Shown in pieces: positions 773-63,250 of a stretch of DNA of 64,000 bases (within the stretch, counting starts at the first letter, position 1; the number at the start of each line of letters is the position of its first letter). The DNA lies in the NCBI GenBank assembly GCA_026770705.1, contig JANJGN010000323.1, positions 558,001 through 622,000 of the forward strand, read 5' to 3'. Both the position numbers and the translations under genes were made by a program. The notes under the pieces are model-generated. The model was not told the DNA's origin. It did not search any database and saw nothing but the letters and a program-made list of their open reading frames with translations. This stretch comes from Isurus oxyrinchus. Taxonomy: Eukaryota.

Positions 773-1054
773 ACGGACCACGGAATCTCTTAATTACTTC
801 TCTGGATATGATTAACGTTTCATCGATCAATATAATTGAGGGGAATTCTGCAGTGATAATCTGCTCTGTCGAGAGCTTCCCAGCTTCTAACCTGACGTGG
901 CAACATCTTAATGTCCCAATAAACAGAACAAGTTCCAACAATGAGCTGTGGTTGGTGATTCCTCACGTTACATCCAGGGACACTGGAGACTATCAGTGTG
1001 TGGCAGAGAATGAACATGGAGCAGTGGAGGGATTCATAACCATCACTGTGGAAT
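773..1054 (+). CDS. Gene 1 (inhibitory Siglec-like): C2-set Ig exon a
   Basis: tttttag acceptor, 282 nt, phase 1/1, GTGAGT donor at 1055; encodes GPRNL...IICSVESFPASNLTW...DTGDYQCVAENEHG...ITVE with the Ig C-W-C pattern. Confidence 0.92.
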
Positions 1055-1545
1055 GTGAGTGTACACAGAATGCAACATCTCTCTCAGATTTGAACACATA
1101 TACACAAATGCACACCCACACGCACACACAAGCACTCACTGCACTGGAGTCTCGGTATCAGCTCCAATTCTGGATGGAACGAAGGTAAACTACAGATCAA
1201 CAAGTCCCTGAATTGGATGAGCAACCTCCTGAACAGAGAATTCTATATTTACCCCTCAGTGCTCCATCGATCAAATACAATCATTGCCTGTCAAGCCCTT
1301 GGGGACATCCTGAGGATGTGAAAGCAAATTCCTTTCATTCTAGGTGGACAGCGCCTCTACTGGTGGGAGAATGTAACTGCAGTTTGACTGTTTACATAGG
1401 CAGTGCCCATTATAAATTTGACAGTGGAAGTTATATGGAGTGGAGGGACCTGGCTATGCATACAGACATCAGATACAGAGAGATAATGCATGGAGTCTTG
1501 CAGTAAACTGTGCTTGCTCACATTAAACACTTGATTTGTTCTTAG

Positions 1546-1827
1546 ATGCTCCACAGAATCTCTTATTTACTTCTCTTGATATGATTAACGCTTCATCGAT
1601 CAATATAATTGAGGGGAATTCTACAGTGATAATCTGCTCTGTCGAGAGCTTCCCAGCTTCTAACCTGACGTGGCGACATCTTAATGTCCCAATGAACAGA
1701 ACAAGTTCCAACAATGAGCTGTGGTTGGTGATTCCTCACGTTACATCCAGGGACACTGGAGACTATCAGTGTGTGGCAGAGAATGAACATGGAGCAGCGG
1801 AGGGATTCATAACCATCACTGTGGAAC
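1546..1827 (+). CDS. Gene 1: C2-set Ig exon b (tandem duplicate of exon a)
   Basis: ttcttag acceptor, 282 nt, phase 1/1, GTGAGT donor at 1828; YAPQNL...ITVE, nearly identical to exon a. Confidence 0.92.
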
Positions 1828-2637
1828 GTGAGTGTGGAGATACATTTGTTTGTTTGTTGTCTCCGTGGTCTCCGTGGAGCCATTGGGATCGTGTTGTTTT
1901 TAATCCAGTTTTCTTCAATCCTCGCTCAGTCCACGTTATCCACACATCCAATTTTTCCTCTCCCTTTCTGTTTTTGCTCTCAGTTTCTCCTTCAATGGTT
2001 GTGAGGACAAGGCTGTCAGGTCTTCGTTTGCAATCTCCATACTTGACGACCTTTCTCTCTCTAACTGTCCTGAACAACCCTTTTAATTGCTGAACTTCTC
2101 ATTCTTTAATTGATAAATATTATATATAAATGTTACATGTTGAAATGCAATACCTGTATTCATAAATTGCTTAGAAATTACTAAACATTCAACAGCCAAT
2201 GAAGCATTATCGAAGTGAGCACAAATTTGTAATGAAGGAAACACAGGTACTGATTTGTGCACAGCAAGATCCCACAAACCACCGTGTGATAATGACCTGA
2301 TAGTCGATTATTTCAGTGAGGCTGGTTGTTACATGTGTAGAGACTACATACCCTTTAGGGAGGGAAGCATGTCTCGATGTGGATGTGACTCCAGTCTCAG
2401 ACACCAACATGGTTAACTCACACCTGCCCTCTGAACTGGTCTCCCAGTTTGGGACAAACCAGTGGTTCAGGAGGAAGACCCCCCACCACCTTCTCAAGGG
2501 GAAACTAGGGATGGACAATAAATGTCAGCATTGCCCGAGAATGAGTATTTAAACACTGAGTGAGTGTATCGCTTCTCGAGATACATCGGAGCATCATTGT
2601 AAACCTGTAGTGCAGTAATTAATGGCTGTTTTTACAG

Positions 2638-2734
2638 GTAGAGACTCCAGTAAATGGACAGTAGGATTGTTCACGGCTGGGATCATGTTGAGTGTTTTCC
2701 TGGCTGGAATCTTCATCTTCATCTGTGTGAGAAA
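2638..2734 (+). CDS. Gene 1: transmembrane exon
   Basis: tttacag acceptor, GTAAGT donor at 2735, phase 1 to 2; RRDSSKWTVGLFTAGIMLSVFLAGIFIFICVRK, uncharged TM followed by a basic stop-transfer. Confidence 0.9.
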
Positions 2735-3249
2735 GTAAGTCTGGAGATTTAACTTGATTTTAATATAAACATTTGCTTCAATGCTCTTTCCTGAAGTCGG
2801 TGATTGTTTCCCTTGGGATCAGCACCAGGTCCCTCTCTGTAAGTGATCCCTGTGTCCACTCTGATCCGGAGAGAACCTTTCATTGTCCTGTATCCAGGTA
2901 AACGATCACGAGACCCAGAGATTCCTCACTCTGCACGATTACTCCTGGATTGATATTTGCTTCAATGTTCTTTCCTGAAGTCGGTGATTGTTTCCCTTGT
3001 GTTAAGCGCCAGATGCCTCTCCGTAACTGGTCTCTTTATCCGTTATGATCCAGAGAGTGTTTTTCATTGCCCGTTATCCAGATGAATAATAATCAGTTGC
3101 TGTGATCTGGAAGGCGCTGCCTGAAAGGGAGGTGGAAGCAGATTCAATAGGATCTTTCAAAAGGGGAATTGGATAAATACTTGAAGGGGGAACATTTGAA
3201 GGGCTATGGGGGGAAGAGCAGGGTTGGAGGGCGGGTCAAAGATATGGCG

Positions 3250-3505
3250 TGTCATTATAATGATATTATACCTTGGGCTTATTTACTGTACAAGAAAGAA
3301 AGCACCAATCGCTCACAGGGTTTGGGCGAGAATGTTGTCGGTTTGTTCATCAAGACTCGGCACGAGAACAGTTATACACACGGATAAAGATTGGAGGCAT
3401 CAGAGCTGTGAGTGTGTGCTCTGCTCAAAGCAAAAGTGAAACTAAGATTGGATCACATGACACACTTCCATTATAGTGATGTCACGCTGATACCCCTTAT
3501 TGGAA
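3250..3505. mobile_element. Solo LTR-like fragment related to the LTR at 49138-50626
   Basis: Shares 'aaagtgaaact...gatcacatgacacacttcc...gtgatgtca' with 49305-49325 and 50564-50600. Confidence 0.5.
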
Positions 3506-3611
3506 CTAGAGACAGTCCAGTCGTTGGTGTAAGGTTACAGTGGTCTCTGTGTCTGTGCTGCACTGACTCTCAGCTATATGATAACCACAGTGTGATATTG
3601 TGTTATTGCAG

Positions 3612-3693
3612 GAGAAAGACAGCGATGGAGGAGAGAGTTTCAGGGACCAGTGACATTGCATTGACCCCCAGGTCACTCTCTGTGAAGCACCAG
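3612..3693 (+). CDS. Gene 1: cytoplasmic exon 1
   Basis: ttgcag acceptor, CAG|GTACAG donor, phase 2 to 0, fits between the TM and terminal exons; (K)RKTAMEERVSGTSDIALTPRSLSVKHQ. Confidence 0.8.
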
Positions 3694-3905
3694 GTACAGG
3701 AACTGTTTACACTCACTCCAAAGCTTCAACCTCAGTCTGTAGACAACACGTATACCAGATTCTCAGCCGGGTTACACACAGATATCTCCTTGTGAAGTCA
3801 GCAATGGCTCACTGGTCAGCACTGTCTCTCGCTCCCAGCCTCCGTCTCCCTCCATCACTCGCTCTTTGACCAGAAACCTGAACACATTAATGACAAGGCA
3901 CCTGA

Positions 3906-6900
3906 TGTCAGAACTGAGGGAGTGCTGCACTGTCAGAGGGTCAGTACTGAGGGAGTGCTACACTGTCAGAGGGTCAGTACTGAGGGAGTGCTGCAATGTC
4001 AGAGTGTCAGTACTGAGGGAGTGCTGCACTGTCGGAGGGTCAGTACTGAGGGAGTGCTGCACTGTCAGAGTGTCAGTACTGAGGGAGTGCTGCACTGTCG
4101 GAGGGTCAGTACTGAGGGTGTGTTGCACTGTCAGAGGATCAGTACTGAGGGAGTGCTGCACTGTCGGAGGGTCAGTACTGAGGGAGTGTTGCACTGTCAG
4201 AGCGTCAGTACTGAGGGAGTGTTGCACTGTCGGAGGGTCAGCACTGAGGGAGTGCTGCACTGTCAGAGGGTCAGTACTGAGGGAGTGCGGGACTGTCAGA
4301 TGGTCATTACTGAGGGAGTGCTGCACTGTCAGAGGGTCAGTACTGAGGCAGTACTGCACTGTCGGAGGGTCAGTAGTGAGGGAGTGCTGCACTGTCGGAG
4401 GGTCAGTACTGAGGGAGTTGTGCACTGTCAGAGTGTCATTACTGAGGGAGTGCTGCACTGTCGGATGATCAGTACTGAGGAAGTGCTGCACTGTCAGCGG
4501 GTCAGTACTGAGGGAGTGCTGGACTGTCAGAGAGTCAGTACTGAGGGAGTGCTGCACTGTCGGAGGGTCAGTAGTGAGGGAGTGCTGCACTGTCAGAGGG
4601 TCAGTATTCCGAGAGTGCTGCACTGTCAGAGGGTCAGTACTGAGGGAGTGCTGCACTGTCAGAGGGTCAGTATTGAGGGAGTGCTGCACTGTCGGAGGGT
4701 CAGTACTGAGGGAGTGCTGGACTGTCAGAGAGTCAGTACTGAGGGAGTGCAGCACTGTCGGAGGGTCAGTAGTGAGGGAGTGCTGCACTGTCAGGGGGTC
4801 AGTACTGAGGGAGTGCTGCACTGTCGGAGGGTCAGTAGTGAGGGAGTGCTGCACTGTCAGAGGGTCAGTATTGAGGGAGTGCTGCACTGTCAGAGGGTCA
4901 GTACTGAGGGAGTGCTGCACTGTCAGAGGGTCAGTATTGAGGGAGTGCTGCACTGTCAGAGGGTCAGTACTGAGGGAGTGCTGCACTGTCAGAGGGTCAG
5001 TATTGAGGGAGGGCTGCACTGTCAGAGGGTCAGTATTGAGGGAGTGCTGCACTGTTGGAGGGTCACTAGTGAGGGAGTGCTGTACTGTCAGAGGGTCAGT
5101 ATTGAGGGAGTGCTGCACTGTCAGAGGGTCAGTATTGAGGGAGGGCTGCACTGTCAGAGGGTCAGTATTGAGGGAGTGCTGCAATGTTGGAGGGTCAGTA
5201 GTGAGGGAGTGCTGCACTGTCAGAGGGTCAGTATTGAGGGAGTGCTGCACTGTCAGAGGGTCAGTATTCCGGGAGTGCTGCACTGTCAGAGGGTCAGTAG
5301 TGAGGGTGTGCTGCACTGTCAGAGGGTCAGTATTGAGGGAGTGCTGCACTGTCAAAGGATCAGTATTGAGGGAGTGCTGCACAGTCAGAGGGTCAGTACT
5401 GAGGGAGTGCTGCACTGTCAGAGGGTCAGTATTGAGGGAGTGCTGCACTGTCAGAGGGTCAGTATTGAGGGAGGGCTGCACTGTTGGAGGGTCAGTAGTG
5501 AGGGAGTGCTGCACTGTCAGAGGGTCAGTATTGAGGGAGTGCTGCACTGTCAGAGGGTCAGTATTCCGGGAGTGCTGCACTGTCAGAGGGTCAGTAGTGA
5601 GGGAGTGCTGCACTGTCAGAGCGTCAGTACTGAGGGAGTGCTGCACTGTCAGAGGGTCAGTACTGATGGAGTGCTGCACTGTCAGAGGGTCAGTATTGAG
5701 GGAGTGCTGCACTGTCAGAGGGTCAGTATTGAGGGAGTGCTGCACTGTCAGAGGGTCAGTATTGAGGGAGTGCTGCACTGTCAGAGGGTCAGTACTGAGG
5801 GAGTGCTGCGCTGTCGGAGGGTCGGTACTGAGGGAGTGCTGCACTGTCAGAGGGTCAGAACTGAGGGAGTGCTGCACTGTCAGAGGGTCAGTAGTGAGGG
5901 AGTGCTACACTGTCAGAGGGTCAGTGCTGAGGGAGTGCTGCACTGTCAGAGGGTCAGTACTGAGGGAGTGCTGCACTGTCAGAGGGTCAGTAGTGAGGGA
6001 GTGCTGCACAGTCAGAGGGTCAGTGCTGAGGGAGTGCTGCACTGTCAGAGGGTCAGTACTGAGGGAGTGCTGCAATGTCAGAGTGTCAGTACTGAGGGAG
6101 TGCTGCACTGTCGGAGGGTCAGTACTGAGGGAGTGCTGCACTGTCAGAGTGTCAGTACTGAGGGTATGCTGCACTGTCGGAGGGTCAGAACTGAGGGTGT
6201 TTTGCACTGTCAGAGGATCAGTACTGAGTGAGTACTGCACTATCGGATGGTCAGTACTGAGGGAGTGTTGCACTGTCAGAGCGTCAGTACTGAGGGAGTG
6301 TTGCACTGTCGGAGGGTCAGCACTGAGGGAGTGCTGCACTGTCAGAGGGTCAGTACTGAGGGAGTGCGGGACTGTCAGATGGTCATTACTGAGGGAGTGC
6401 TGCACTGTCAGAGGGTCAGTACTGAGGGAGTACTGCACTGTCGGAGGGTCAGTAGTGAGGGAGTGCTGCACTTTTGGAGGGTCAGTACTGAGGGAGTAGT
6501 GCACTGTCAGAGTGTCATTACTGAGGGAGTGCTGCACTGTCGCAGGGTCAGTACTGAGGGAGTGCTGCACTGTCGGATGTTCAGTACTGAGGAAGTGCTG
6601 CACTGTCAGCGGGTCAGTACTGAGGGAGTGCTGGACTGTCAGAGAGTCAGTACTGAGGGAGTGCTGCACTGTCAGAGGGTCAGTACTGAGGGAGTGCTGC
6701 ACTGTCAGAGGGTCAGTACTGAGGGAGTGCTGCACTGTCGGAGGGTCAGTACTGAGGGAGTGCTGGACTGTCAGAGAGTCAGTACTGAGGGAGTGCAGCA
6801 CTGTCGGAGGGTCAGTAGTGAGGGAGTGCTGCACTGTCAGGGGGTCAGTACTGAGGGAGTGCTGCACTGTCGGAGGGTCAGTAGTGAGGGAGTGCTGCAC

Positions 6901-8622
6901 TGTCAGAGGGTCAGTAGTGAGGGAGTGCTGCACTGTCAGAGGGTCAGTATTGAGGGAGGGCTGCACTGTCAGAGGGTCAGTATTGAGGGAGTGCTACACT
7001 GTTGGAGGGTCAGTAGTGAGGGAGTGCTGCACTGTCAGAGGGTCAGTATTGAGGGAGTGCTGCACTGTCAGAGGGTCAGTATTCCGGGAGTGCTGCACTG
7101 TCAGAGGGTCAGTAGTGAGGGTGTGCTGCACTGTCAGAGGGTCAGTATTGAGGGAGTGCTGCACTGTCAGAGGGTCAGTATTCCGGGAGTGCTGCACTGT
7201 CAGAGGGTCAGTAGTGAGGGTGTGCTGCACTCTCAGAGGGTCAGTAATGAGGGAGTGCTGCATTGCCAGAGGGTCAGTATTGAGGGAGTGCTGCACTGTC
7301 AGAGGGTCAGTACTGAGGGAGTGCTGCACTGTCAGAGGGTCAGTACTGAGGGAGTGCTGCACTGTCAGAGGGTCAGTGCTGAGGGAGTGCTGCACTGTCA
7401 GACGGTCAGTATTGAGGGAGTGCTGCACTGTCAGAGGGTCAGTACTGAGGGAGTGCTGCACTGTCAGAGGGTCAGTAGTGAGGGAGTGCTGCACTGTCAG
7501 AGGGTCAGTACTGAGGGAGTGCTGCACTGTCAGAGGGTCAGTACTGAGGGAGTGCTGCACTGTCAGAGTGTCAGTACTGAGGGAGTGCTGCACTGTCAGA
7601 GGGTCAGTATTGAGGGAATGCTGCACTGTCAGAGAGTCAGTACTGAGGGAGTGCTGCACTGTCAGAGGGTCAGTACTGAGGGAGTGCTGCACTGTCAGAG
7701 GGTCAGTATTGAGGGAGTGCTGCACTGTCAGAGGGTCAGTATTGAGGGAGGGCTGCACTGTCAGAGGGTCAGTATTGAGGGAATGCTGCACTGTTGGAGG
7801 GTCAGTAGTGAGGGAGTGCTGCACTGTCAGAGGGTCAGTATTGAGGGAGTGCTGCACTGTCAGAGGGTCAGTATTCCGGGAGTGCTGCACTGTCAGAGGG
7901 TCAGTACTGAGGGAGTGCTGCACTGTCAGAGGTCAGTATTGAGGGAGTGTTGCACAGTCAGAGGGTCAGTATTGAGGGAGTGCTGCACTGTCAGATGGTC
8001 AGTACTGAGGGAGTGCTGCACTGTTGGAGGGTCAGTACTGAGGGAGTGCTGCACTGTCAGAGGGTCAGTACTGAGGGAGTGCTGCACTGTCAGAGGGTCA
8101 GTAGTGAGGGAGTGCTGCACTGTCAGAGGGTCAGTGCTGAGGGAGTGCTGCACTGTCAGAGAGTCAGTACTGAGGGAGTGCTGCACTGTCAGAGAGTCAG
8201 TACTGAGGGAGTGCTGCACTGTCAGAGAGTCAGTACTGAGGGAGTGCTGCACTGTCAGAGAGTCAGTACTGAGGGAGTGCTGCACTGTCAGAGAGTCAGT
8301 ACTGAGGGAGTGCTGCACTGTCAGAGGGTCAGTATTGAGGGAGTGCTGCAGTGTCAGAGGGTCAGTAGTGAGGGAGTGCTGCACTGTCGGAGGGTCAGTA
8401 CTGAGGGAGTGCTGCACTGTTGGAGGGTCATTAGTGAGGGAGTGCTGCACTGTCAGAGTGTCAGTATTGAGGGAGTGCTGCACTGTCAGAGGGTCAGTAC
8501 TGAGGGAGTGCCGCACTGTCAGAGGGTCAGTACTGAGGGAGTGCTGCACTGTCAGAGGGTGAGTACTGAGGGAGTGCTGCACTGTCAGAGGGTCAGTACT
8601 GAGGGAATGCTGCACTGTTGGA
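3906..8622 (+). repeat. 33-bp minisatellite (GTCAGTACTGAGGGAGTGCTGCACTGTCAGAGG), roughly 140 units, intronic
   Basis: Direct tandem repeat; gives 11-aa periodic ORFs in several frames on both strands. Confidence 0.97.
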
Positions 8623-8808
8623 GTGCGATAGAGATTAAATTATACAGAGAGAGAGAAAGCGAGAGAGAAAGAGAGACAGAGAAAGATATTGAAAAAAAGG
8701 GTTAAACCCACTGAGACACGACTGACACTAACGAGGCTGCACAATAATTTAACCCTATCAGTGCCAGTAAATGATGTGAGGATGTCTTCTGTTTCCATTT
8801 CTCTGTAG

Positions 8809-9057
8809 GGTAAACAGAACGTGCTGATTACTGAGCCCCGGAACACAACCAGAGACACAACTAGTGAGGGGGAGACCCCAGCTCCCCGGGGTCTCTCTGA
8901 AGGTCCAGTGGGAGGCGATGTTGGACATGGGAACCCCGACAATCCCGACGAGCTTCTCTACGCCAACATCAACTTTTCAAAGCTGCCCGGCGGTGACAGG
9001 ACTGTGCACAGGAGCGAGGACACGGAATACGCACAGATCAGGTTCCAGAAAAACTGA
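8809..9057 (+). CDS. Gene 1: terminal cytoplasmic exon with ITIM and ITSM-like motif
   Basis: ctctgtag acceptor, phase 0; GKQNVLITEP...DELLYANINF...EDTEYAQIRFQKN*. The LxYxxI plus TEYxxI pair is the classic Siglec inhibitory tail. Confidence 0.92.
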   Translation, partial: GKQNVLITEPRNTTRDTTSEGETPAPRGLSEGPVGGDVGHGNPDNPDELLYANINFSKLPGGDRTVHRSEDTEYAQIRFQKN

Positions 9058-36816: not shown

Positions 36817-36913
36817 GGCGAGATTCCAATGAATGGAAAGCAGGATTGCTTGGAGCTGGAATCTGTTTGAGTGTTGGACTGAGTGGATTCTTCATCTTCA
36901 AGTGTGTGAGAAA
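36817..36913 (+). CDS. Gene 2: transmembrane exon
   Basis: tttacag acceptor, GTAAGT donor, 97 nt like the gene 1 TM exon; RDSNEWKAGLLGAGICLSVGLSGFFIFKCVRK. Confidence 0.85.
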
Positions 36914-37224
36914 GTAAGTGTGAAGCTTTAATTGGTTGTTTTTGAAAATGTTTTCTTCAACCTTCTCTCCTTATAGAAAGAATTTGCATTTCTATAGCAC
37001 CTTTCACAACCCAAAACCCTTCACAGCCCCTGAAGAGCTTTGATGTTCAACCACTATTGAACATCTCATCCTACACTCCCTGTTTGACAACGCAGTCCTG
37101 TAACTGGCAGTGTTGACCCGGACCATAAAATACCCTGTGACCCCTTGAGGATGTGAAAGGTGCTATATAAATGAAAACCTTTCTTTCGTTAGTGCATGCA
37201 ATCTCATTCCATTTTCCATGTTTC

Positions 37225-37380
37225 ATTCACTCTCTCTTATCTCCACTAATGCTCTCCTCTCATTCTCTCTCTCATTCACTCTCTCTCTAATCTCCAATAA
37301 TGCTCTCCTTCTCATTCTCTCTCTCATTCACTCTCTCTCAAATCTCCACTAATGCTCTCCTTCTCATTCTCTCTCTCGTC
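37225..37380. repeat. Short CT-rich tandem repeat (~43-45 bp, 3-4 copies)
   Basis: cattcactctctct...atctccactaatgctctcc repeated. Confidence 0.75.
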
Positions 37381-37669
37381 CTCTTACACATTGTTCAGTA
37401 TCTCACATTTTTAAGGAGCGCTGAGCAACATCTGCTCCTTCAGAAGATCCACCTCAACATCTGGACTGAGCAGTGAATTGAAACTCGCTCAACGACTGTT
37501 CAGCTTTACACAGGAATCACGTCACAGAGTCAGGACACAAAGGGTTAACAGATAGTTTACAACACAACACTAAGGCCCTACGTTTCAATGAAAGGGTTTT
37601 CACAATTGTTCCCCAATTCCTGATTTTGTCTCACAGAGACACATCAACCCTTTCTCATTAAATACACAG

Positions 37670-37754
37670 AGGCAGCAGCACAGGAAGAGGTCATTCAGCC
37701 CAAGCAGAGCGTGTGGGCAGTTCCTCCCCAGGCGAGCAGTCGGACAGGTCCTGG
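37670..37754 (+). CDS. Gene 2: putative cytoplasmic exon 1 (85-nt shared exon)
   Basis: tacacag acceptor, TGG|GTAAGT donor; 1+84 nt gives the phase 2 to 0 bridge the gene needs; (K)GSSTGRGHSAQAERVGSSSPGEQSDRSW. Confidence 0.6.
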
Positions 37755-37954
37755 GTAAGTAACGGAACGATTGGAATTCACTTCCACCACCAACACCGTC
37801 CTTTGTTGATGTTGTGACTTTATAAAGACAGATTCCAATGATTGATGCCTTTGAAAGGTTTCTACTGATTATTGAGATCTGGGTGTGAGGCTCAAGTCTG
37901 TTGTACAGAACATCTTTCTGGTTAAATTATGCAGACAGGTTACACACAGTCTAC

Positions 37955-38197
37955 GATTATATTCCCTCGGGTCTAGAAGATTAAGGAGTGATCTAACTGA
38001 GGGGTTCAAAATGATTAAACACTCGATAGGGTCGATAGAGAGAAGCTATTCCCTCGGGTGGGGGTGGGTGGTGGGGGTCGGGTGAAGTCCAGAACAAGGG
38101 GGCTGGAACTTCAGATTGGAGCCAGGCCGTTCAGGGGTGATGTCAGGAAGCACTTCTTCACACAAAGGGGAGTGGAAATCTGGAACTCTCTCCCCAG
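37955..38197 (+). mobile_element. CR1 LINE 3' fragment
   Basis: LYSLGSRRLRSDL...; TRGLELQIGARPFRGDVRKHFFTQRGVEIWNSLP. Confidence 0.85.
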
Positions 38198-38265
38198 TGA
38201 TCAAACCCAACACCGAATACACATCATGTTGATTGTCACTCTGTCCATTTCCATCTCTATTACAG

Positions 38266-38370
38266 AAGAGAGGCGAGGGGAAAGCAGGAATCAAATCGAA
38301 CCACCGTGTTGATGAATATCGAGGTCCTGTTTATGAAAACTGTGAGCGTGGTTGGGCTTTGAGGAATCAG
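38266..38370 (+). CDS. Gene 2: cytoplasmic exon 2 (YENC)
   Basis: Pyrimidine tract + tacag acceptor, CAG|GTGAGT donor, phase 0/0; KRGEGKAGIKSNHRVDEYRGPVYENCERGWALRNQ. Confidence 0.75.
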
Positions 38371-38501
38371 GTGAGTCACACACCACAGGATCCCCAGCCT
38401 CTCAGCTGCTCCAGTAGCCTGGTTATTGATATGGCTGCTCCAGTCCTGTATCTGCAATTTTTTATACAGTCACTCCCAAACCCAACCAAACTCACACCCA
38501 A

Positions 38502-39625
38502 CACCGTTCAGAATCAATAATCAAACCCCGATCAGAATCAATAATCAAACCCCGTTCAGTATCAATAATCAAACCCCGTTCAGTATCAATAATCAAACCC
38601 CGTTCAGTATCAATAATCAAACCCCGTTCAGAATCAATAATCAAACCCCGTTCAGAATCAATAATCACACCCCGTTCAGTATCAATAATCAAACACCGTT
38701 CAGAATCAACAATCAAACCCCATTCAGTATCAATAATCAAACCCTGTTCAGTATCAATAATCAAACCCCGTTCAGTATCAATAATCAAACCCCGTTCAGT
38801 ATCAATAATCAAACCCCATTCACTATCAATAATCAAACCCCGTTCAGTATCAATAATCAAACCCCGTTCAGAATCAATAATCAAACCCCATTCAGAATCA
38901 GTAATCAAACCCCGTTCAGTATCAATAATCAAACCCCGTTCAGAATCAATATTCAAACCCCGTTCAGAATCAATATTCAAACCCCATTCAGTATCAATAT
39001 TCAAACCCCGTTCAGTATCAATAATCAAACCCCGTTCAGAATCAATAATCAAACCCCGTTCAGAATTAATAATCAAACCTCGTTCAGTATCAATAATCAA
39101 ACCCCTTTCAGAATCAATAATCAAACCCCGTTCAGAATCAATAATCAAACCCCGTTCAGTACCAATAATCAAACCCCGTTCAGTATCAATAATCAAACCC
39201 TCTTCAGAATCAATTATCAAACCCCGTTCAGTATCAATAATCAAACCCCATTCACAATCAATAATCAAACCCCGTTCAGTATCAATAATCAAACCCTGTT
39301 CAGAATCAATAATCAAACCCCGTTCAGAATCAATAATCAAACCCCATTCACAATCAATAATCAAACCCCGTTCAGTATCAATAATCAAACCCTGTTCAGA
39401 ATCAATAATCAAACCCCATTCAGAATCAATAATCAAACCCCATTCAGTATCAATAATCAAACCCCATTCAGAATCAATAATCAAACCCCGTTCAGAATCA
39501 ATAATCAAACCCTATTCACAATCAATAATCAAACCCCTTTCAGAATCAATAATCAAACCCCATTCACAATCAATAATCAAACCCCGTTCAGTATCAATAA
39601 TCAAACCCTGTTCAGTGTCAATAAT
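38502..39625. repeat. 24-bp minisatellite (ATCAATAATCAAACCCCGTTCAGW), ~47 units, intronic
   Basis: Direct tandem repeat; the INNQTPFS ORF is an artefact. Confidence 0.97.
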
Positions 39626-39723
39626 TAATGTATGTATTGTGGGTGGAATTTTCGATTTGGATCAATAATACTAAACACTGATCACTCTGATTGTCACTCT
39701 GATCATTTCTGTTTCTATTACAG

Positions 39724-39840
39724 AAGAAAGATGAGAAGGATCTGGAAATGAAATCTAACCGCGGAGTCAATCCTGATACAGATGATGATCTTTACGCAAA
39801 CTGTGAATTTGCCAAGGATTCTGTTTATGGGAATTTATAA
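39724..39840 (+). CDS. Gene 2: terminal cytoplasmic exon (YANC, SVYGNL*)
   Basis: ctattacag acceptor, phase 0; KKDEKDLEMKSNRGVNPDTDDDLYANCEFAKDSVYGNL*, with acidic residues before the tyrosines as in kinase substrate sites. Confidence 0.82.
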   Translation, partial: KKDEKDLEMKSNRGVNPDTDDDLYANCEFAKDSVYGNL

Positions 39841-44483: not shown

Positions 44484-44568
44484 AGGGAGCAGCACAGGAA
44501 GAGGTCATTCAGCCCAAGCAGAGCGTGTGAGCAGTTTCTCCCCAGGCGAGCAGTCGGACAGGTCCTGG
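44484..44568 (+). other. Gene 3 / module B: putative 5' non-coding exon
   Basis: Copy of the 85-nt exon, GTAAGT donor. Confidence 0.6.
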
Positions 44569-45018
44569 GTAAGTAACGGAACGATTGGAATTCACTTCCA
44601 CCACCAACACCGTCCTTTGTTGATGCTGTGACTTTATAAAGACAGATTCCAATGATTGATGCCTTTGAAAGATTTCTACTGATTATTGAGATCTGGGTGT
44701 GAGGCTCAAGTCTGTTGTACAGAACATCTTTCTAGCTCAAGGGATGAGGGAAGTGCAGAGACATGAGCTTTGGGATATCCTGAGCAGGTGAAAGGTGCTA
44801 TAGAAATGCAAGTCCTTCATTGATTTATTTTTTTAAAGGTTTTTAACTCTCTGCAGAGCACCTATCATCCCACAGAGAACCAAATTAGTCTGTGAAGACA
44901 TTGTCTAAAAGCAGTTCTGATCTCTCGAGAGCTGTCGGACAAGAGGTGAGGTCTCATTAACTCCTTTCTCTTTCAGAGTTTGAGAGTCAGAAGCTAAAGG
45001 AATATCTGGGAGAGGACA

Positions 45019-45058
45019 ATGATCGGGAAATCTTACTTCCTCCTGTCACTTATCCAAG
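45019..45058 (+). CDS. Gene 3 (activating Siglec-like): signal-peptide exon
   Basis: MIGKSYFLLSLIQ+G|GTAATA; joins the V exon in frame (…LIQVGLSQEW). Confidence 0.75.
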
Positions 45059-46039: not shown

Positions 46040-49000
46040 AAGCGGTTTCTCATATCATGTTCATATTTATTGACAATTACATAAGTGCATGGAACTGTTG
46101 AATATTTGACTCTCTAAAGTGTGGATTTAACCTTCTGGTCCACCCAGATCTTGTGCTGGTTACCTTGTCTGGAGGTGTCTTTAACTGCTCACAGTGATCT
46201 GTGGGATTGTCACCCTTGGATGTTGTTCCTGATTTCATGTGGGATCTTCTCCTCGATGGAATAGGAGCAGGAATGGATCTGATTTATCCTCGGTTCCACC
46301 TCACCGCTGTGCCCTTGTGTGTTTGACTCCATAGGCCCTTGGTTCTGAACAAATCCTTGTCACCTCGGCTGGTGGTCATGAACCTTCTGTGGGAACCTGG
46401 ATGTGAACTTGTCCCAACTGTAAACTTGGCAACTCTGCACCTCCATTTTTATCATGAACATTCCTTATCTTCTCTTGTAGTTTTAAAAGTTGCCCTCTGG
46501 TTTCTGAGAGAGTAGAATGGGTAAGAATAGCGAAATTGGTCACTACTGGCCCACCAAACATGCTCTCTGTCAGTGATGGAATAAGGTGAGGTGATGGTGT
46601 AGTGGTATTGTTGCTAGATGAGTAATTCAGACACCCAGGGTAATGTCCTGAGAATATGGGTTCAAATCCGACCATAATAGATGATGGAATTTGAATTTAA
46701 TAAAAAGATGAAATTCAAAGTTTAGTGATGACCACAAAACCATTGTTGGAAATCCCACCTGGTTCACCAGTGCCATTTAGGGAACAAAATTGTCTGGCCG
46801 ACATGTGACTCCAGACTCCACGTCAATGTGGTTCACTCTTACATTAGGGATGGGTAATAAATCCTGGCCTGACCAGTGACTCCCACATCCCATGAATGAA
46901 TTTAACAAAGTTGCAGTTGTAGGTGTCGATCTCAGATGTAACATTGCAATGTGTGGATCTTGCTTGGTCTGTCTACATTTGAGAATTAGGGATTTCACTG
47001 TGTGAATCATTCATTCAGCTAGGCTGTTAGATCAGGGGTAATGAGGAGAAGAAGTAGTGTGATTGATATTCCAGATTATCTGTAATCATGTCCCTAGGTT
47101 CACCACATAAACTGAAAATAGTGCTTAGAGTGTGTGCACCAGTTGTGCTCGGTGTGTTGTGCTATTTTTGAATAATGGGATATCTGGTAAAGCTGTCGAC
47201 GATGACGATGAAGTCAGTGACATGGACATGAAAGGATTCAGATGTGATTTTGGACTAAGAATAGGCAGGAATTTCCTGTGGAATCAGTGTTTCTTTATGT
47301 TGACTTGGCTCATCCTCTTGACAAGCCTCGTACTTCCCTACAACAACTTCAAGGTCATTGTTCATACCTGGCCAGGGACTGTATCTCTTGTGAGTCTCCT
47401 TGTGTGATCTGTGCCATGTGTGAGGGATGAAGTTGTTGAAGAATATAGGATCACAAAAGTGCCGGTATGATGCCCTGCCTGCCATTAAAAATGACTCCCT
47501 GGGAGATGCCTCGCTTATCTCGATGAGGTCAAGTTGAATCAGGCCACCCTTTCAATGATATTTCCACAGTTCCTGCAGAATTTTTCACTGTTCCCTCTTG
47601 TAGCTGCTGGCATTTCTGTTGTGCTAAATGTACTGGATCAATTGACAGACTTGCATTCTCCTGCAGGTGTAATGTAGCAGCTCCCTTGAAACTGACAATA
47701 CTGTTGAAACTTTCTGCATATTTCAATGTTATGTCCATGAACTGAGTTGATGGGGTAGTTTCTGCGTTTGACCCATGTGAAGTCTGACAGATTCCATGCA
47801 TTGTCACTAGTGTGAGGTCACCGCATGCCGGTAGACTTGCAATTGCTCAGCCTTTAGTCTCCACGATGTAGAACATCTGTGACACCCAGGAGGATTGATT
47901 GTATTTGCACCCCAGGACTATGGATTCTGCACATGGATTTGAAGTGTTGTACACAGCAGTAGGTTTCCCCATGGCCTCCCATGTCCTTGGATACATGTCT
48001 TTGAAAATTTGCTGGGGTGGGCTGTGGGAGGGGAATGTTGGCACTTGCCCCTGTGTCAATCTTGGTCAATAAAGGAGAGGTTGCAACTTTCTCAGGGCAG
48101 AAAATTGGAATCTTGGCCAATAGTGCAGGTGATGTGACAGCATCTGTTCTCCGTGAGATTGATGGTGTAAAAGGTTTGAAATTGTTCAACAATTGTACAA
48201 TACGTTGAGCACAACTGTTGCACAAACTCTAGGTTGGGGTTTTCCGGCACAGTCATGATGGGACCTGCCGTGGGAGATTGGACAAACATTGGCTTTCGGC
48301 TGGACCGGACAATCCTGGCAGTGGGTGGGGCCAGAAAATCCCACCCCTATGGGACATTTTCAGTTTATTTGATGTGCCCAGAGAGATCTTTAAAGACAAC
48401 AATCCACAATTTATTGGCAAGCCACGCCAGGATATGTGTGAGAGGTGGAATATCGATCAGCGCTCCTCGTCTCACCGTGTACATCATCACCATTTCCTGG
48501 TTTGTCAGTCACCACATGTATATGTTCCTGATGGAATAGCGGATGGTCATTCTTATTGCTTGAAGGTTCCCCGTTGTGTAGGGTCTGTTTGGATCAGTGC
48601 ACAGCTCTTTGTAGCTGCATCAGCCTTTGCTCTCGTGCCCTGCCGCTGTCAATGGCCCTTTCTGCAACAAGCCTTGCAGGATTGGTGGAAAGCTGGGCAT
48701 TTCCTTGGTGCCTGCAGAAGGCCACACCTTCCACATGTCTCACTAGGTTTGGATGTTCTAGTGAGTGTGTCAACAATTGATGTTGTACTGAGGACCTGTA
48801 AGCTTCGTTGACCTGCGAGGATCACTTCGTATTTATGTCGATCCTTGAGTAGCTCTTCAATGCTATAGGTTTTGGTCTTATCTAGCAGATCTCACCACGA
48901 GGGATCCGTCTGCTCCCCAGCTCTTTACTTGAGCTCTTTCCCGTCACTGTGTCTTCAAAGGTTTCCTGAGCAGTCAGTACACTGCGATTTCAACCCTCTC

Positions 49001-51254: not shown

Positions 51255-51623
51255 TTGGACTGTCACAAGAATGGGAAAGTAACACTCCACGAGAGGTGAC
51301 AGCGCAGAAAGGTTCATGTGTACAGATTCCATGTCATTACAATTACCCATCACATTTGTTAGAGAAAACACATGTCGGAATCTGGAATATGAGGAGGGAC
51401 AAATGGAATACATTGTCTATAGCCTTTCACTCCAAGGATCACAGTCACGAGTTATCACGGTTCCACCATCGGACCCGGCTGTCTGGAGACCTGAAAGATG
51501 GCGACTGTTCCCTGATTATAAACAACATCAGACGGGAAGATGCAGGATTTTTTTTTTTCAGAATAGAATTTGACAATGGTCGGAGCCATAACTATTACCC
51601 TGAAACCCTGCTTCAGGTTTCTG
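51255..51623 (+). CDS. Gene 3: Siglec V-set exon
   Basis: ccccag acceptor, GTAAGT donor, 369 nt, phase 1/1; GSCVQIPC (two Cys), GDCSL (E-strand Cys) and EDAGFFFFRIE (Arg in the F strand, no canonical Cys) are Siglec hallmarks. Confidence 0.95.
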
Positions 51624-53345: not shown

Positions 53346-53642
53346 ATTTCACAGATAAACCCACGATATTCCCTGCTGAAATTATTGCAGGAAAGCGTGT
53401 GGATGTAAGCTGCACCTTCAACACAACGTGCAATGGAACAGCAGCACCTGTCTTAACCTGGGACACTCCCACTGACGTACCTGGATCAGTCTCAAACACT
53501 GTAACTCAGCATGGTGTCACTCTGACCTATACTTCTGTTCTGACCCTGATCCCATCACTCAAACACCACGGACACACTCTCAGCTGCAGAGTGAGATATC
53601 CATCTGTTTCATCGGAGCGGACCCTCGTACTAACTGTGCAAG
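53346..53642 (+). CDS. Gene 3: second Ig (C2-set) exon
   Basis: 297 nt, phase 1/1; DFTDKPTI...VSCTFNTTC...LTW...SVLTLIP...HGHTLSCRV; the extra Cys fits the Siglec D1-D2 inter-domain disulfide. Confidence 0.93.
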
Positions 53643-53965
53643 GTAAGTATGGACACCCTTCATTCTACATCAGAATTCCCTCAGCGCTGACCCTCTGACA
53701 GTGCAGCCCGTTCTCAGTGTCCATATTCTCAGGCCACTCAAAGTACTTCACAGTCGATAGAAGTTAACTGATCTTTATTTGATTGTTGCTGAATGAAGTG
53801 ACAAGCTGTCTAAACTTTACAGCTTGCACACGTTATTTTCCATGGCAACACCTCCTCTAATCAGAGACCACTTGCCAACCAATCAGCACTCTCTTCCCTT
53901 TAAATATAAATTGTTGTACATTTTCTGTTGGTAAACCTGCGAGCTGTCATGTTGAGTCCTGCCCT

Positions 53966-54118
53966 GACATCTCAATGTCACAATGAACAGAACAAGTTCC
54001 AACAATGAGCTGTGGTTGGTGATTCCTCACGTTACATCCAGGGACACTGGAGACTATCAGTGTGTGGCAGAGAATGAACATGGAGCAGTGGAGGTGTCCA
54101 TAACCATCACTGTGGAAC
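53966..54118 (+). pseudogene. Gene 3: 5'-truncated third Ig exon (half domain)
   Basis: Nearly identical to the 3' half of the gene 1 C2 exons, donor intact, but first Cys/Trp and acceptor are missing. Confidence 0.8.
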
Positions 54119-55237
54119 GTGAGTGTGCACAGACTTCAACATCACTCTCAGGTTCAAACACTACACAAATACACACAAATATACAGACCTAAGCAGACAC
54201 CTGCAGACACACAATCCCAAATGTATGAGCACACACAAAGACACACTCACAAACAAACACCCTATCACATACTGCCCTGTGGGTTACCTGACCTCCCTCA
54301 GTGCTGCACCAGAGTATTGACCTAGATTCTGGGTTTTGTGTTCCCTTTCATATTTATGGAAGAATATGGAAATTGCAAGGTCTATTACAGACACTCAGAT
54401 GCACAGGGATACTCACAGATACACTCTGCCTCTCCAACTCACTATCCTCCTTTAAGAAGTTTCCTGAAACCTAATCCTTTGACCAGTCACCTGTCCCAAC
54501 TCCTCTTACGTGATTTTGTGTGAAATTTTGTTTGAGTATCTGAGAGTAAGAGAGAGGTGGAGAGGTTTAGGAAGGGAATTCCTGTTGGTGAAAAGCTTAC
54601 ATCATGTTCTCAGCTTTCCAGTGCCCATTTTTCACATGATGTCCAATGTCCATGTTCATAATGGGGATTGCCTATGTAAACGTCACGCTGTAGTTACACT
54701 CTGCCACCAGTGGTGGCACGGTAGCACTTAACCCTTGCATCTCCCAGCTTTTCAAGCAATTTCCCTTCCTAATTTGCTACTATTCACCTCAACCACTCCC
54801 TGTGGGAACGAGTTCCACATTCTCCCCTCTCTCTGGGTAAAGATTGGAATTGTTTATTAAGCGGGGTTGTAAGTCCGTGAGGGAGTCCATCTCGATCCTG
54901 CCCGATTCGCACACGCATCCGAGATGGATTTCCACCCTGCACTAAACGTTTCCAGAATTTTCTACAGCACAATCCTGTACACAGCGATGGAGAGAAACAT
55001 TGGACAGGGAGTCCAACAGCACAATGATCCATTCTCACCAATGTTCCACGCTAAGGGGAAAGTTCCGATTGTCCACTCTTAGAGTGTTTACAATGAAAAC
55101 ATTCATTCCACATTGAATCCCAGTGGATGGGTCAATATTACAGCAAATGTTGCAGTGATATGAAGCTTGATTGTTCAGCCAGAGTGAGAGATTGAAAGCG
55201 GAGAGTCAGTGATGATTTCTTTCTGTGTGTTCTCTAG

Positions 55238-55377
55238 ACAGTGGAGGAGAGATTCTGCACGTGATCCTGATCCTGGGAATACGAGCTGTGATATTCCTTG
55301 TGGCTGTGGTTATCACTATCGCTGGAGTCTGTGTCTGGGAGAGACAAACAGTGACAGGAAGTCGACAGACTGTTTGA
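55238..55377 (+). CDS. Gene 3: TM plus short tail exon with intramembrane Arg
   Basis: tctctag acceptor, phase 1; DSGGEILHVILILGIRAVIFLVAVVITIAGVCVWERQTVTGSRQTV*. Confidence 0.88.
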
Positions 55378-57500: not shown

Positions 57501-58137
57501 TTTTTAAATATAAACCCTCAGAGCCATGGTAGAAATTTGAAGTTAACAAACAGCAAACAGAAAGATCACAGAGTCATGATGAATTGCCAACAGTTTGATT
57601 CTGTTGTAACGCATTGTGAAATTACGCACTCATTCCTACTGCCTGTTTACTCACTCCTTTACTACTTCCCCATTTTGTCTCACAGAGACACATCAACCCT
57701 TTCTCATTAAACACACAGAGGGGCCAGCACAGGAAGAGGTCATTCAGCCCAAGCAGAGCGTGTGGGCAGTTCCTCCCCAGGCGAGCAGTCGGACAGGTCC
57801 TGGGTAAGTAACGGAACGATTGGAATTCACTTCCACGACCAACACCGTCCTTTGTTGATGTTGTGACTTTATAAAGACAGATTCCAATGATTGATGCCTT
57901 TGAAAGATTTCTACTGATTATTGAGATCTGGGTGTGAGGCTCAAGTGTGTTGTACAGAACATCTTTCTAGCTCAAGGGATGAGGGAAGTGCAGAGACATG
58001 AGATTTGGGGGCGTCCTGAGGTGGTGAAAGGTGCTATAGAAATGCAAGTCTTTCATTGTTTTTCTTTTTCAAGCCTTGTAACTCTCTGCAGAGCACCTAT
58101 CATCCCACAGAGAATCAAATTAGTCTGTGAAGACATT

Positions 58138-58775: not shown

Positions 58776-59109
58776 ATTGTCTAAAAGCAGTTCTGATCTC
58801 TGGAGAGCTGTCGGACAAGAGGTGAGGTCTCATTAACTCCTTTCTCTTTCACAGCTTGAGAGTGAGAAGCTGATGAAATATCTGGGAATGGACAATGATC
58901 TTACTTCCTCCTGTCAGTTCTCCAAGCTAATATCATCGTCAGCTCGGACAGATTTATGGTTAATAGTCTTTGTAAAAGATCATTCTTATTGAGCTGTGAT
59001 TGGGAACCGATTCAGCAGTGAGCCAGTGTACAAACTCACACCAAGTCCCATTCACCCATCACCCCTGTGATCACTGATATTCACTGACTCCCTGTCTGAC
59101 AGCAACAGA

Positions 59110-59570
59110 AAATTAAAATCCAGGTCATCCTGTAGAAATCCCTCCAAAATTTTGCAACTCTCCCTATCCATGTTACCTCCTCCAGCCCATACCAACCTCC
59201 CTATCTCTGTAACATCTTCCAGCACATATATTACTCCCTACCTCTGTAACCTTGCCCTGATCCTACAATCCTCCCTATCTCAGTAACCTCCTCCAGCCCC
59301 TACCACTCTCCCTAACTCTTTAACCAACTCCAGCCCCTATATCCTTCGCTATCTCTGTTAATTTCTCCAGCCCCTACAAACCTCCCTTTCTCTGTAACCT
59401 CGTCCACCATTACAACCCTCCCTATTTCTGTAATCTCCTCCAGTACCTACAACCCTCCGAGATCTCTGCACTCCTCCAATTCCAGCATCTTGACCATCCC
59501 CCGATTCCCATCATTCCATTATTGGCGGCCGTGCCTTCAGCTGCCTGGGCCCCGAGCTCTGGAATTCAAA
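59110..59570 (+). mobile_element. L2-like LINE fragment with an internally amplified ~35-bp unit
   Basis: ctccctatctctgtaacctcctccagcccctacaa repeated ~8x, then ggcggccgtgccttcagctgcctgggccc. Confidence 0.7.
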
Positions 59571-60475
59571 ATCAAAATTCAGGGATGAATTAACTCCAAT
59601 AGTCCATTCCCTGAGAGGCCATGATTACATCACAGCAGCATTCAGAATAGACAGAGGGTCCAGCCCTCACACTTCTTGCACAGTTTCACCATAACGAAAT
59701 GAATTAACTGAAAGGTAAACCGTCAGTGTAGAGAGATGAGATATTTACACAGTTTCCCTGTGTATCTTGTAGACACTGTGTTGGGTGGAAGACTGGCTTC
59801 ACTAAACAGGGTCCTGAGGACTATGAGCCAATGTAGAATGAACTTGTCCACTCCTGTGTCCAGGATTCTCTTCTATCCATTGTGATACATTGGGGAGATC
59901 CCTGTGTGTCCTGTAGATGGTCCACACTGCAGCCACTGTGCCCCAGTGATGGAGGGGGTGGATATCGAGTCTAGTGGATCTACAAACCATCCAGAGTTAA
60001 ATATTGATATTTCTCTCCCCAGTTGGACTGTCACAAGAGTGGAAAGGTGACACTCCATGAGAGGTGACAGCGCAGGAATATTCGTGTGTACAGATTCCAT
60101 GTCATTACAGTTATCCATCGTGTCTGGAAAACCAACCACAAATTGGAATCTGGTTTAATGACAAAGTCCTGATAAGATTCTTTATAGCCTTTCACTCCAA
60201 GGATCACAGTCACGAGTTACCACAGTTCCGGCATCGGACCCGGCTGTCTGGAGACCTGAAAGATGGTGACTGTTCACTGATTATAAACAACATCAGATGG
60301 GAAGATGCAGGACCTTATTTTTTCAGAATAGAATTTGACAATGGTCCGAGCCATAACTATTACCCTGTAACCCAGCTTCACGTTTCTGGTAAGTGCTATG
60401 TTATAATTACTCAACAATTCACATTCAACACTCAATGGGAATGAACACAAACTCTGACGTTTACATAATAAGACT

Positions 60476-61545
60476 GTTATGACATGGCAGGTGATGTGTG
60501 CCAGGTGGAGAGAATCCACAAAGGGAACTTGGACAAGCTACCACAATGGTTTTGCCATTTACATTTGTTGAGAGAAGGCTTATGATGTGAATGCATAAGA
60601 ATTGAGTCCACTAACACCTTTAGATATTTTAAAATTATATTAAGAAATGTATTAACAAAAGAAGAAACATTCAAACACATACAGAAGATTACAGTTACTT
60701 GATATTAGAACAAATTCCAAAATTTCTCATTAACCTAATTTCCAACTACACACCCCCTTGAAGGCAACAATCCCAATAAATCTTAAATGGAAATGGGAAT
60801 CCGGCAAGGTTACTGCAGCACCCACTTGACAGTGTAATTCCAAAGTCTTTTAACACACCTATAAGCACTGGAGCAGCAAAAGTGAACAGAAACGTTTTAC
60901 CTAAAAGGACCCATTCCCTGTCTGTTAGATTTCACAGATCAACCCACGATATTCCCTGCTGAAATTATTGCAGGCAAGCGTGTAGATGTAAGCTGCACCT
61001 TCAACACAACGTGCAATGGAACAGCAGCACCTGTCTTCACCTACTGTACCTTTCAAGAAATTCATGTCCCCCTCCCACATAACATTCCATCCTTCTTTAT
61101 GTTGGTTTCTCTCTCTCCAATGTATAAAATCCCACTGTTGCACCTGTCTTGGGAAATACACTTTTCTCATAGTATAAAAATCTTTCATGTTGTCAATATG
61201 GCCCATTCCTTTTGGGAAGAATACACATAATAACCTTGCCCTGGTTATCTTGTTAATTATAAACACCCAACTACCCTTTGACAATCAAACATTCTCTTTA
61301 CTGATCTAAAATTTCATTTACAGCTTTTCTGTGGAACCCTCATCCTAGCTTGTCCATCCCCATTTCAGAAGTCTGCTTTGCACCAAACTCTATTGATAAT
61401 TTTAACCTCACAGTTGATCTGACTCGAATTCAATTAAATCAGACCCACAGACGGAACCATCAAGATTCATTCCCATAAGCCGACAATATTATTCTGAAAA
61501 ACATCACAGTTTCATCACAACATAAAACACAGTTTAGTATAACGC
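60476..61545 (-). mobile_element. LTR-like insertion in the gene 4 V-C2 intron, containing a partial C2 exon copy (60929-61042)
   Basis: Starts tgttatgacatggcaggtgatgtgtgcc, related to 10225-10240 and 50631; absent from the gene 3 intron; right boundary uncertain. Confidence 0.6.
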
Positions 61546-62275
61546 AGAGTCTGATTCTCAATAACCTGGTGATAGCTTCCATTCAGTCCTAAAGCAACCT
61601 CTAATACTCACTTTAATATCAATGATTAAATGTATTGACTGTGTCCATCAATGTTATCAGGTCATCCACTCCCATCTATCTCTAATCTTAGGGCTGTGAT
61701 TTCTGTTTGAACTGATGCTTCACGTTATATTTCTCTAAAAGGATCCATTCTCTGTCTGTTAGATTTCACAGATAAAACCACGATATTCCCTGCTGAAATT
61801 ATTGCAGGAAAGCGTGTGGATGTAAGCTGCACCTTCAACACAACGTGCAATGGAACAGCAGCACCTGTCTTAACCTGGGACACTCCCACTGACGTACCTG
61901 GATCAGTCTCAAACACTGTAACTCAGCATGGTGTCACTCTGTCCTATACTTCTGTTCTGACCCTGATCTCATCACTCAAACACCACGGACACATTCTCAT
62001 CTGCAGAGTGAGATATCCATCTGTTTCATCGGAGCGGACCCTCGTACTAACTGTACAAGGTAAGAACGGACACCCTTCATTATGCATTCGCTGGAACAGT
62101 CTAGATTACGCACAGCAGGATCCCATAGAAAGGTATTCTGATGACAATCAGATAATCTGTTTTTTAAATAAAATGGTGACCAGAATACAATTAATAACCG
62201 TTTCTGAACATTAACACAGGGGCTTTTATGTCCAGCCAAGGGGCTGATAGAGCAGAGCAGGAATCGCAATGTACT

Positions 62276-62872: not shown

Positions 62873-63165
62873 TGGGGAATTTCAGTCTGCACTGTGGGGC
62901 AGGCATCTGCTGAATGGGGTCTTGAACCCCACAAAATTCTACAACATACTGACTCCCTGAGTTCGGGTGTGAAAACCACTTACCCACAGGAGAAACTCCT
63001 GGTTAATGAGTGTCCATCAGTGAGCAGAAATATCACCACAGGGTCAGGATACAACGGGTTAACAGTTCACCAGCATCTCAAAACATGAGCTGCTCTGTTA
63101 CTTTGATCCAACTTCCTCATTTTGTCTCACAGTGACACATCAACCCTTTCTAATTAAACACACAG

Positions 63166-63250
63166 AGGGAGCAGCACAGGAAGAGGTCATTCAGCCCAAG
63201 CAGAGCGTGTGGGCAGTTCCTCCCCAGGCGAGCAGTCGGACAGGTCCTGG
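63166..63250 (+). other. Gene 5 / module D: putative 5' non-coding exon
   Basis: Fifth copy of the 85-nt exon. Confidence 0.6.

Follow-up and report, generated by a model that had tools for sequence, protein, structure and literature searches.

Does a shark carry an activating Siglec, and, if so, is the gene a relative of Siglec-15 or part of a separate lineage? These questions are raised by a gene within a window of 64,000 nucleotides of Isurus oxyrinchus DNA, the whole stretch that was analysed. A sequence-only reading had described it as an intact two-domain receptor with an intramembrane arginine of the kind that pairs with ITAM adaptors. The exons of the gene, together with a dead exon that this reading had omitted, are as follows.

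44484..44568, + strand: probable untranslated first exon, bounded by AG and GT; 96% identical to the first tail exon in the third (neutral-TM) receptor class
44977..45058, + strand: leader exon; ATG at 45019, 40 coding nt (45019-45058)
51255..51623, + strand: Siglec-type V-set exon, 369 nt; Trp20, Cys35, Cys40, Cys98, Arg116 (51560-51562) and His125
53346..53642, + strand: C2-set exon, 297 nt; Cys159 and Cys217, an extra Cys165, N-glycan sequons N162 and N166
53966..54118, + strand: 3' half of a dead third-Ig exon, in intron 3, skipped
55238..55377, + strand: transmembrane (TM)/tail exon, 140 nt, ending in TGA; Arg251 at 55282-55284; 13-residue tail without Tyr

The four coding exons (40+369+297+140 nt) sum to 846 nt, that is 281 amino acids and a stop, in the order leader-V-C2-TM(Arg251)-tail. 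Every intron is GT-AG and in phase 1, and the four-exon model proposed earlier is borne out. The same holds for the TM motif given at the time, for the short Tyr-free tail, and for the remark that the TM exon escapes an ORF track, which would miss it because its open frame is only 53 aa long. Among candidate acceptors between the C2 donor and the next leader, position 55238 is the best one into the hydrophobic phase-1 frame. Its pyrimidine fraction is 0.85, compared to 0.45-0.5 at the four other candidates, three of which fall inside the same TM exon. Intact exons, Arg251 and the lack of a signalling tail thus support an intact two-domain, Siglec-type gene with activating anatomy.

The leader is also present in the RefSeq relatives P0046, P0078 and P0013, and a second, equally open copy of it lies at 42802-42841. 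Upstream of the leader, 44484..44568 probably serves as an untranslated first exon, to judge from related copies: a piece of this type is found 300-800 nt upstream of 38 of the 42 leaders sampled, and in the RefSeq model P0034 it is spliced to the leader. The first tail exon of the third-class paralogue (37560-38100) is 96-97% identical to 42217-42523, 44426-44733, 57666-57968 and 63108-63415, and was apparently reused as the untranslated first exon of the family.

Is the Arg-containing TM exon the one that follows the C2 exon in transcripts? The C2-to-TM junction (53642 to 55238, GT..AG) occurs in contigs of runs X1-X4, X6 and X8, from studies P1, P3 and P5; the X8 contig crosses it with 296 + 164 letters. 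The V-to-C2 junction was found in a contig of run X4. The runs used are RNA by guess only, and junctions were looked for in contigs of 8 of the 22 runs, 16 of the 22 having small word shares. Neither X5 nor X17 is among the runs listed with the C2-to-TM junction. X17, with 61% read, resembles DNA and shows no V-to-C2 junction either, and an X5 contig joins a remnant-type exon to the TM exon, with a deletion of 1 nt. Because the contigs carry letters of paralogues, the splice evidence applies to the family and not to this copy. At that level C2 joins the Arg TM exon in six runs of three studies.

The remnant at 53966-54118 is 93-96% identical to intact Ig exons at window positions 773-1054 and about 1545-1827. 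Acceptors that take in more than 66 nt of it all lead to a stop or a frameshift, and we rejected its in-frame use, pieces of 30-66 nt with poor acceptors being the exception. Among 80 sampled loci with an Arg anchor (defined below), the remnant is found in 70, an intact third Ig exon in 8 and neither in 2. The remnant is an old lesion, common to most activating copies.

To which proteins is the ectodomain related? Pfam assigns the V domain to V-set (43.7 bits) and Ig_CD22 (32.4 bits), both above cut-off. In a sequence search of the PDB, the V domain matches sialoadhesin (47.8 bits), MAG (44.5) and Siglec-5 (43.7) best, followed by Siglec-8, CD33, Siglec-10 and Siglec-7 (down to 35.8 bits), with Siglec-15 at 30.8 and CD22 at 23. 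As in Siglecs, a V-set domain precedes C2-set sequence in a type I membrane protein, and Arg116 aligns to the essential F-strand Arg of sialoadhesin, MAG and Siglec-5. The A-strand aromatic residue is kept, since Trp20 aligns to Trp2 of sialoadhesin. Cys35, Cys40, Cys98 and Cys165 are all present and align to the B-E strand and V-C2 inter-domain cysteines of Siglecs, which we take to form the corresponding bonds here. As a stand-in for the window protein, we used the AlphaFold model (pLDDT 87.8) of P0046, a catshark relative of identical architecture. Its best structural matches are MAG, CD33, Siglec-10, CD22 and Siglec-5, and Siglec-15 is not among the matches listed. The receptor is of the Siglec type, and its V domain is predicted to bind sialylated glycans.

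Could the gene nevertheless be a shark Siglec-15, or a close derivative of it? Both have two Ig domains and a basic TM residue, and the V-C2-TM(basic) outline is identical. The similarity ends there. Excerpts of PMC10264397 describe for Siglec-15 a C64-C142 bond next to Arg143, plus a C95-C104 bond. In the window V domain, Phe precedes Arg116; no Cys adjoins the essential Arg and there is no C'-C'' pair, and the cysteines C35, C40 and C98 follow the B/E-strand plus inter-domain pattern of the CD33/MAG type. The TM residue is Arg251 and not the Lys that, according to section 3.3.2 of PMC7226832, is conserved in Siglec-15 from fish to mammals. Unlike the single, conserved Siglec-15 gene, the window gene belongs to a multigene, paired family, nested among ITIM-bearing shark paralogues in trees that hold no Siglec-15 sequence. 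Together with the low PDB rank (30.8 bits against 35.8-47.8 for the other Siglecs), this makes a Siglec-15 identity highly improbable. The resemblance to Siglec-15 noted before is therefore superficial only, and the separate lineage suggested at the same time is supported by cysteine pattern, TM Arg and rank.

A different doubt concerns the ligand: the receptor may activate, yet recognize a microbial protein or another glycan in place of sialic acid. The G-strand aromatic position, Tyr in MAG and Siglec-5, is occupied by His125, and binding of sialic acid may be weak or altered in consequence. Across 94 intact V exons of the family, 67 have His at this position and 26 have Tyr. Nine of the 94 carry Thr, Ser, Met, Lys or Gly in place of the essential Arg (loci L071, L094, L097, L139, L147, L161, L173 and L184). 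Variation is greatest in the BC and CC' loops, which also contain indels. Siglec-5/14 likewise bind non-sialylated microbial proteins, and in bamboo sharks the TM anchor ends receptors that have no Siglec V domain. In contrast, Arg116 and Trp20 are kept in the window gene, and the Arg is kept in 85 of the 94 intact V exons. We regard a ligand other than sialic acid as a minority possibility of real weight.

How would such a receptor signal? Basic TM residue, short motif-free tail and an ITIM partner with a similar ectodomain constitute the anatomy of an activating paired receptor, and excerpts of three papers (PMC13358205, PMC13233462, PMC6288428) describe signalling via ITAM adaptors for short-tailed receptors that have a basic residue in the TM. 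The Arg anchor with its short Tyr-free tail is found in named proteins of Carcharodon, Scyliorhinus and Chiloscyllium, that is in three shark orders; the ray and squalomorph proteins that we retrieved show no such anchor, an absence of little weight. With the bamboo-shark anchor as a query, 5 of 44 candidates matched, at 83-91% identity. In P0243-P0246 (Chiloscyllium, Hemiscyllium), the anchor is attached to three C2-type proteins without a Siglec V domain and to one with different V domains. If the bamboo-shark gene models are right, the Arg anchor exon would be a portable module; all its carriers there are still Ig-chain receptors.

Which adaptor is the likely partner? Arg251 lies in the outer part of the helix and is followed by 18 uncharged residues. 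In the excerpts of PMC13107469, an Arg near the N-terminal TM end binds FcR-gamma or zeta in the manner of CD89 (also TCR-alpha), whereas DAP12-type assemblies have a central TM Lys. The genome contains an FcR-gamma TM exon with its Asp (L062/L063; 41.7 bits for FcR-gamma compared to 35.2 for zeta). L062 and L063 lie on two small contigs, C1723 and C1648, and differ by one silent base in the exon. A CD3-zeta-like TM exon with Asp (L061) is located on C18. Outer register of the Arg, the uncharged stretch behind it and the FcR-gamma/zeta exons of the genome lead us to favour an FcR-gamma-type adaptor over DAP12 or DAP10, and by this analogy FcR-gamma is the likelier partner. When the TM exon was modelled together with two TM chains of FcR-gamma, the predicted complex scored 0.09 against a mark of 0.34; this prediction was run without controls and counts neither way.

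Like CD89, activating LILRs, NKp46, chicken CHIRs and the Xenopus FCRL/SLAM-like proteins, all Arg-TM receptors coupled to FcR-gamma, the window receptor has an outer Arg, an acidic residue right after the helix and a short tail, and one TM exon is reused through a large, expanding family. Excerpts of PMC6557307 put the Xenopus FCRL/SLAM-like families at 70-75 genes each and describe an NxxR motif in FcR-gamma-coupled LRC receptors. Unlike these receptors, the window protein has a Siglec-type ectodomain and no NxxR, with Leu in place of Asn three residues before the Arg.

Siglec-14 couples to DAP12, reportedly through an Arg. An activating role through DAP12 or DAP10, as in the mammalian Siglec-14, -15 and -16, would agree with the missing NxxR motif, and all characterised activating Siglecs are described as DAP12-coupled in the excerpts of PMC13358205, PMC13233462 and PMC6288428. 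The Arg, however, sits in the FcR-gamma/zeta register of the helix, and a Pfam search of the genome for DAP10 gave only a single match at E=0.4, with a stop codon (a weak test). DAP12 was not found, in a weak test that had no DAP12 query, and a Pfam search of the genome for ITAMs gave no match, its control being likewise silent. We consider DAP12 or DAP10 coupling quite unlikely.

The reading that we favour, and consider likely though well short of certain, is that the intact 281-residue receptor is an activating member of a shark paired system, probably signalling through an FcR-gamma-type adaptor at Arg251. Arg251 would pair with the two Asp residues of the adaptor dimer, sialylated glycans would be the ligands of the V domain, and clustering by ligand would lead to ITAM-Syk signalling. 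Activating copies might then act as counter-traps against microbes that take advantage of inhibitory ones, to which they would be matched by V exon exchange while being renewed by birth and death. The weights given to this reading and to its rivals overlap and do not sum to one.

What evidence is there for a paired system? The gene has related neighbours within the window.

773..9057, + strand: 3' part of an inhibitory-type paralogue; two Ig exons, uncharged TM at 2639-2734, tail exons whose end (8809-9057) has ITIM and ITSM-like motifs
36818..39840, + strand: third-class paralogue, represented by its TM exon and three tail exons; the TM is uncharged and the tail has three YxN motifs
58897..62060, + strand: pseudogene copy downstream of the gene; its leader is broken, its V exon has an in-frame stop, and its C2 exons occur in truncated and in full form

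The ectodomain exons of the third-class paralogue are missing within the window, save for a fragment near 35.5 kb. Its YxN motifs are presumably of the Grb2 type; the last of the three also fits the ITIM consensus.

We counted exon patterns throughout the genome, allowing up to 2 mismatches; controls with reversed patterns gave 0. The assembly contains 227 Arg-anchor exons and 809 V exons, as well as 225 uncharged anchors of the ITIM class, 255 last exons with ITIM/ITSM-like motifs and 110 uncharged anchors of the third class. The matches listed lie mostly on some fifteen contigs filled by the cluster, with a few copies on the large contigs C34 and C25. These totals may be inflated by alleles assembled twice: contig C189 carries a twin of the window gene, 99.0-99.8% identical over 18 kb and 95-96% further upstream, and the FcR-gamma exon was found twice as well. 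A floor free of allelic inflation is provided by the single contig C52 (4.17 Mb), with 63 + 56 + 32, that is at least 151, exact anchor matches, a figure that repeat mis-assembly could still inflate.

On C52, the positions of V exons in G000:C52:1403100-1527817 recur in 2439406-2564199 at an offset of about 1.036 Mb, which suggests a segmental duplication of more than 120 kb inside one contig. Two outliers of the family are found on large contigs, a diverged third-class gene with a second V exon at C34:15129540-15172604 and a V fragment at C25:36073437 (both G000); they may be anchors for synteny.

We examined stretches upstream of the anchors of each class. For the Arg class, these were 7.4 kb long and came from 80 of the 227 copies, namely the leading 80 in the list of exact matches (63 from C52, 17 from C71). 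For the ITIM class (40 anchors) and the third class (20 anchors), they were 9.7 kb long. Forty-seven of the 80 activating loci are broken; the other 33 have no defect in the stretch examined, and one of these, L077, has a late frameshift in its TM exon that the script did not count. Of the 33, 17 contain a pair of V exons and 6 at least three; another 8 combine a single V exon with an intact third Ig, and only 2 show the single-V two-domain form. At activating loci, 29 of 93 full-length V exons are broken, compared to 1 of 31 at neutral-TM loci (Fisher p=0.0012, with copies that are not independent and one of the 29 being merely a GC donor). The broken activating V exons of the shark are alike in this to SIGLEC14/16, for which excerpts of PMC6288428 report frequent null alleles. 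The activating genes are short, whereas some inhibitory genes (L155, L159, L165, L166, L168, L177 and L182) contain at least 8 tandem copies of one Ig exon and have very long stalks.

Is the window copy itself, in a family that functions, a silent or drifting passenger whose frame happens still to be open? The broken majority of sampled activating loci would fit, since single-V copies in particular are mostly broken. The leader lies 6.2 kb from the V exon, compared to 0.7-3.5 kb in sampled paralogues, and in the runs examined no RNA-type contig carries the V letters of this gene. That absence is uninformative because contigs collapse rare variants; moreover, all four exons and their splice sites are intact, and the C189 twin keeps V and TM exons identical to those of the window gene. 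A passenger is thus unlikely in our view, and we return to the favoured reading, an activating member of a paired system. Taken singly, the 281-aa gene is a real and intact, but ordinary, member of its cluster.

How similar are the V exons of the two arms? Three pairs of an activating and an inhibitory V exon reach 99.2-99.4% identity. On average, V identity is 0.878 between classes, compared to 0.885 and 0.875 within classes. The V subtype of the window gene shares 97% nt identity with V exons that precede ITIM-type anchors and tails at C52:4102808 and C323:471704, and 98% identity with the V exon of a third-class gene at C71:1981631. Four-gamete incompatibility climbs with distance from 0.28 to 0.46 (p=0.0005, 69 sites), as gene conversion would give. 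Activating and inhibitory genes share V subtypes and recombine.

Has selection shaped these exons? Variation in V is concentrated in the BC and CC' loops, and pS is 0.16 in V, 0.027 in C2 and 0.007 in the TM anchor. The near-invariance of the anchor within the genome is not evidence of selection, because silent divergence is near zero as well; the Arg-anchor pattern count, furthermore, itself selects for the Arg codon. The near-uniformity of C2 and TM exons suggests homogenisation and not selection on the anchor, whose age across three shark orders is better evidence of function than its uniformity within one genome. Positive selection on V is unsupported by the pooled pairwise pN/pS of 0.63 (0.65 in the CC' loop), a blunt method that is confounded by recombination.

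How old is the family? The nearest named proteins are those of the lamniform sharks Cetorhinus and Carcharodon, with V identities of at most 81%; those of other sharks and of rays come next. Ninety-nine of 137 candidates are RefSeq-type relatives, spread over many species, compared to hundreds of copies within the one genome here. The RefSeq shark models labelled 'Siglec-12/13/14-like', 'CD33-like' and 'MAG-like' belong to the same family, under automatic names given without analysis, and P0038, P0046 and P0078 share the V-C2-TM(Arg) architecture of the window gene. In a V-only tree (72 rows), the shark-and-ray family forms one clade (100/96) and the tetrapod CD33-related proteins a distinct one (100/100), with other shark proteins intervening. 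A V+C2 tree (30 rows) places the shark-and-ray clade as sister to tetrapod CD33-related Siglecs (93/87). The sister relationship has moderate support but is neither established nor rejected by these trees, which lack true MAG, Siglec-15 and mammalian CD22, have rows picked from search hits and contain several long branches.

In three species, proteins of the family and CD22-like or MAG-like proteins occur on equal-sized contigs (P0020/P0105/P0227; P0033/P0056/P0190/P0230; P0085/P0088/P0138/P0155), which suggests one ancestral Siglec region. A genome search with P0230 matches almost nothing but exons of the cluster.

Paired Siglecs such as Siglec-5/14 are a better comparison for the window gene than Siglec-15. 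Like the CD33-related Siglecs, the shark genes are clustered and fast-duplicating, with ITIM and ITIM-like tails and V exchange. Shared with the pairs Siglec-5/14 and Siglec-11/16 are the V-C2 ectodomain with its essential Arg, the presence, next to ITIM-bearing members, of an activating one that has a short tail and a basic residue in the TM, the exchange of V exons and the frequent broken activating copies. Unlike these pairs, the shark family comprises hundreds of loci, compared to about 15 human Siglecs, in a separate shark-and-ray clade; V domains in tandem (V-V and V-V-V) are common in it, it includes a third class whose tail is rich in YxN, and it would probably couple to FcR-gamma in place of DAP12.

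This unusually large shark variant of the paired-Siglec system is a larger finding than the single gene. In its full form, the proposal is that the CD33-related Siglecs have a shark counterpart: a paired system with activating and inhibitory arms, several hundred loci in size and spread across more than 10 Mb. By far the largest Siglec repertoire that we found described, it would combine shuffled V exons, three signalling ends, a portable Arg anchor kept in three orders, and coupling to FcR-gamma. All parts taken together, we hold this tentatively, as slightly less than an even call. If true, paired Siglec signalling dates to early jawed vertebrates or arose twice. According to excerpts of PMC7226832, on teleosts, the Siglecs regularly found in fish are limited to Siglec-1, CD22, MAG and Siglec-15, and fish genomes have no inhibitory CD33-related Siglecs. 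Hundreds of ITIM-type and Arg-anchor shark genes, probably sister to the tetrapod CD33-related clade, would shift the origin of paired sialic-acid recognition back toward the earliest jawed vertebrates. The cluster would also offer a large natural series in which to test activating Siglecs as pathogen counter-traps. Already known are the paired Siglecs of mammals and the database labels of shark proteins as Siglec-like. We found no published description of the shark cluster in a search that most subscription papers lie outside, so that absence from print is not established; the excerpts of the shark genome paper PMC8455134 mention Siglecs once.

The remainder of the window is rich in repeats. 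Long satellite arrays occupy 3800-8600, 17600-32200 and 38500-39600 and contain many spurious long ORFs. Intron 1 of the receptor gene contains a decayed element on the minus strand (about 46100-48900), with what we take to be integrase- and protease-like motifs; long RNA-type contigs from related copies cover it. Pfam gave no match for four reading frames from intron 1 and just behind the gene. At 10183-10680, a reverse-transcriptase fragment (Pfam RVT_1, 37.2 bits) is probably the remnant of a LINE.
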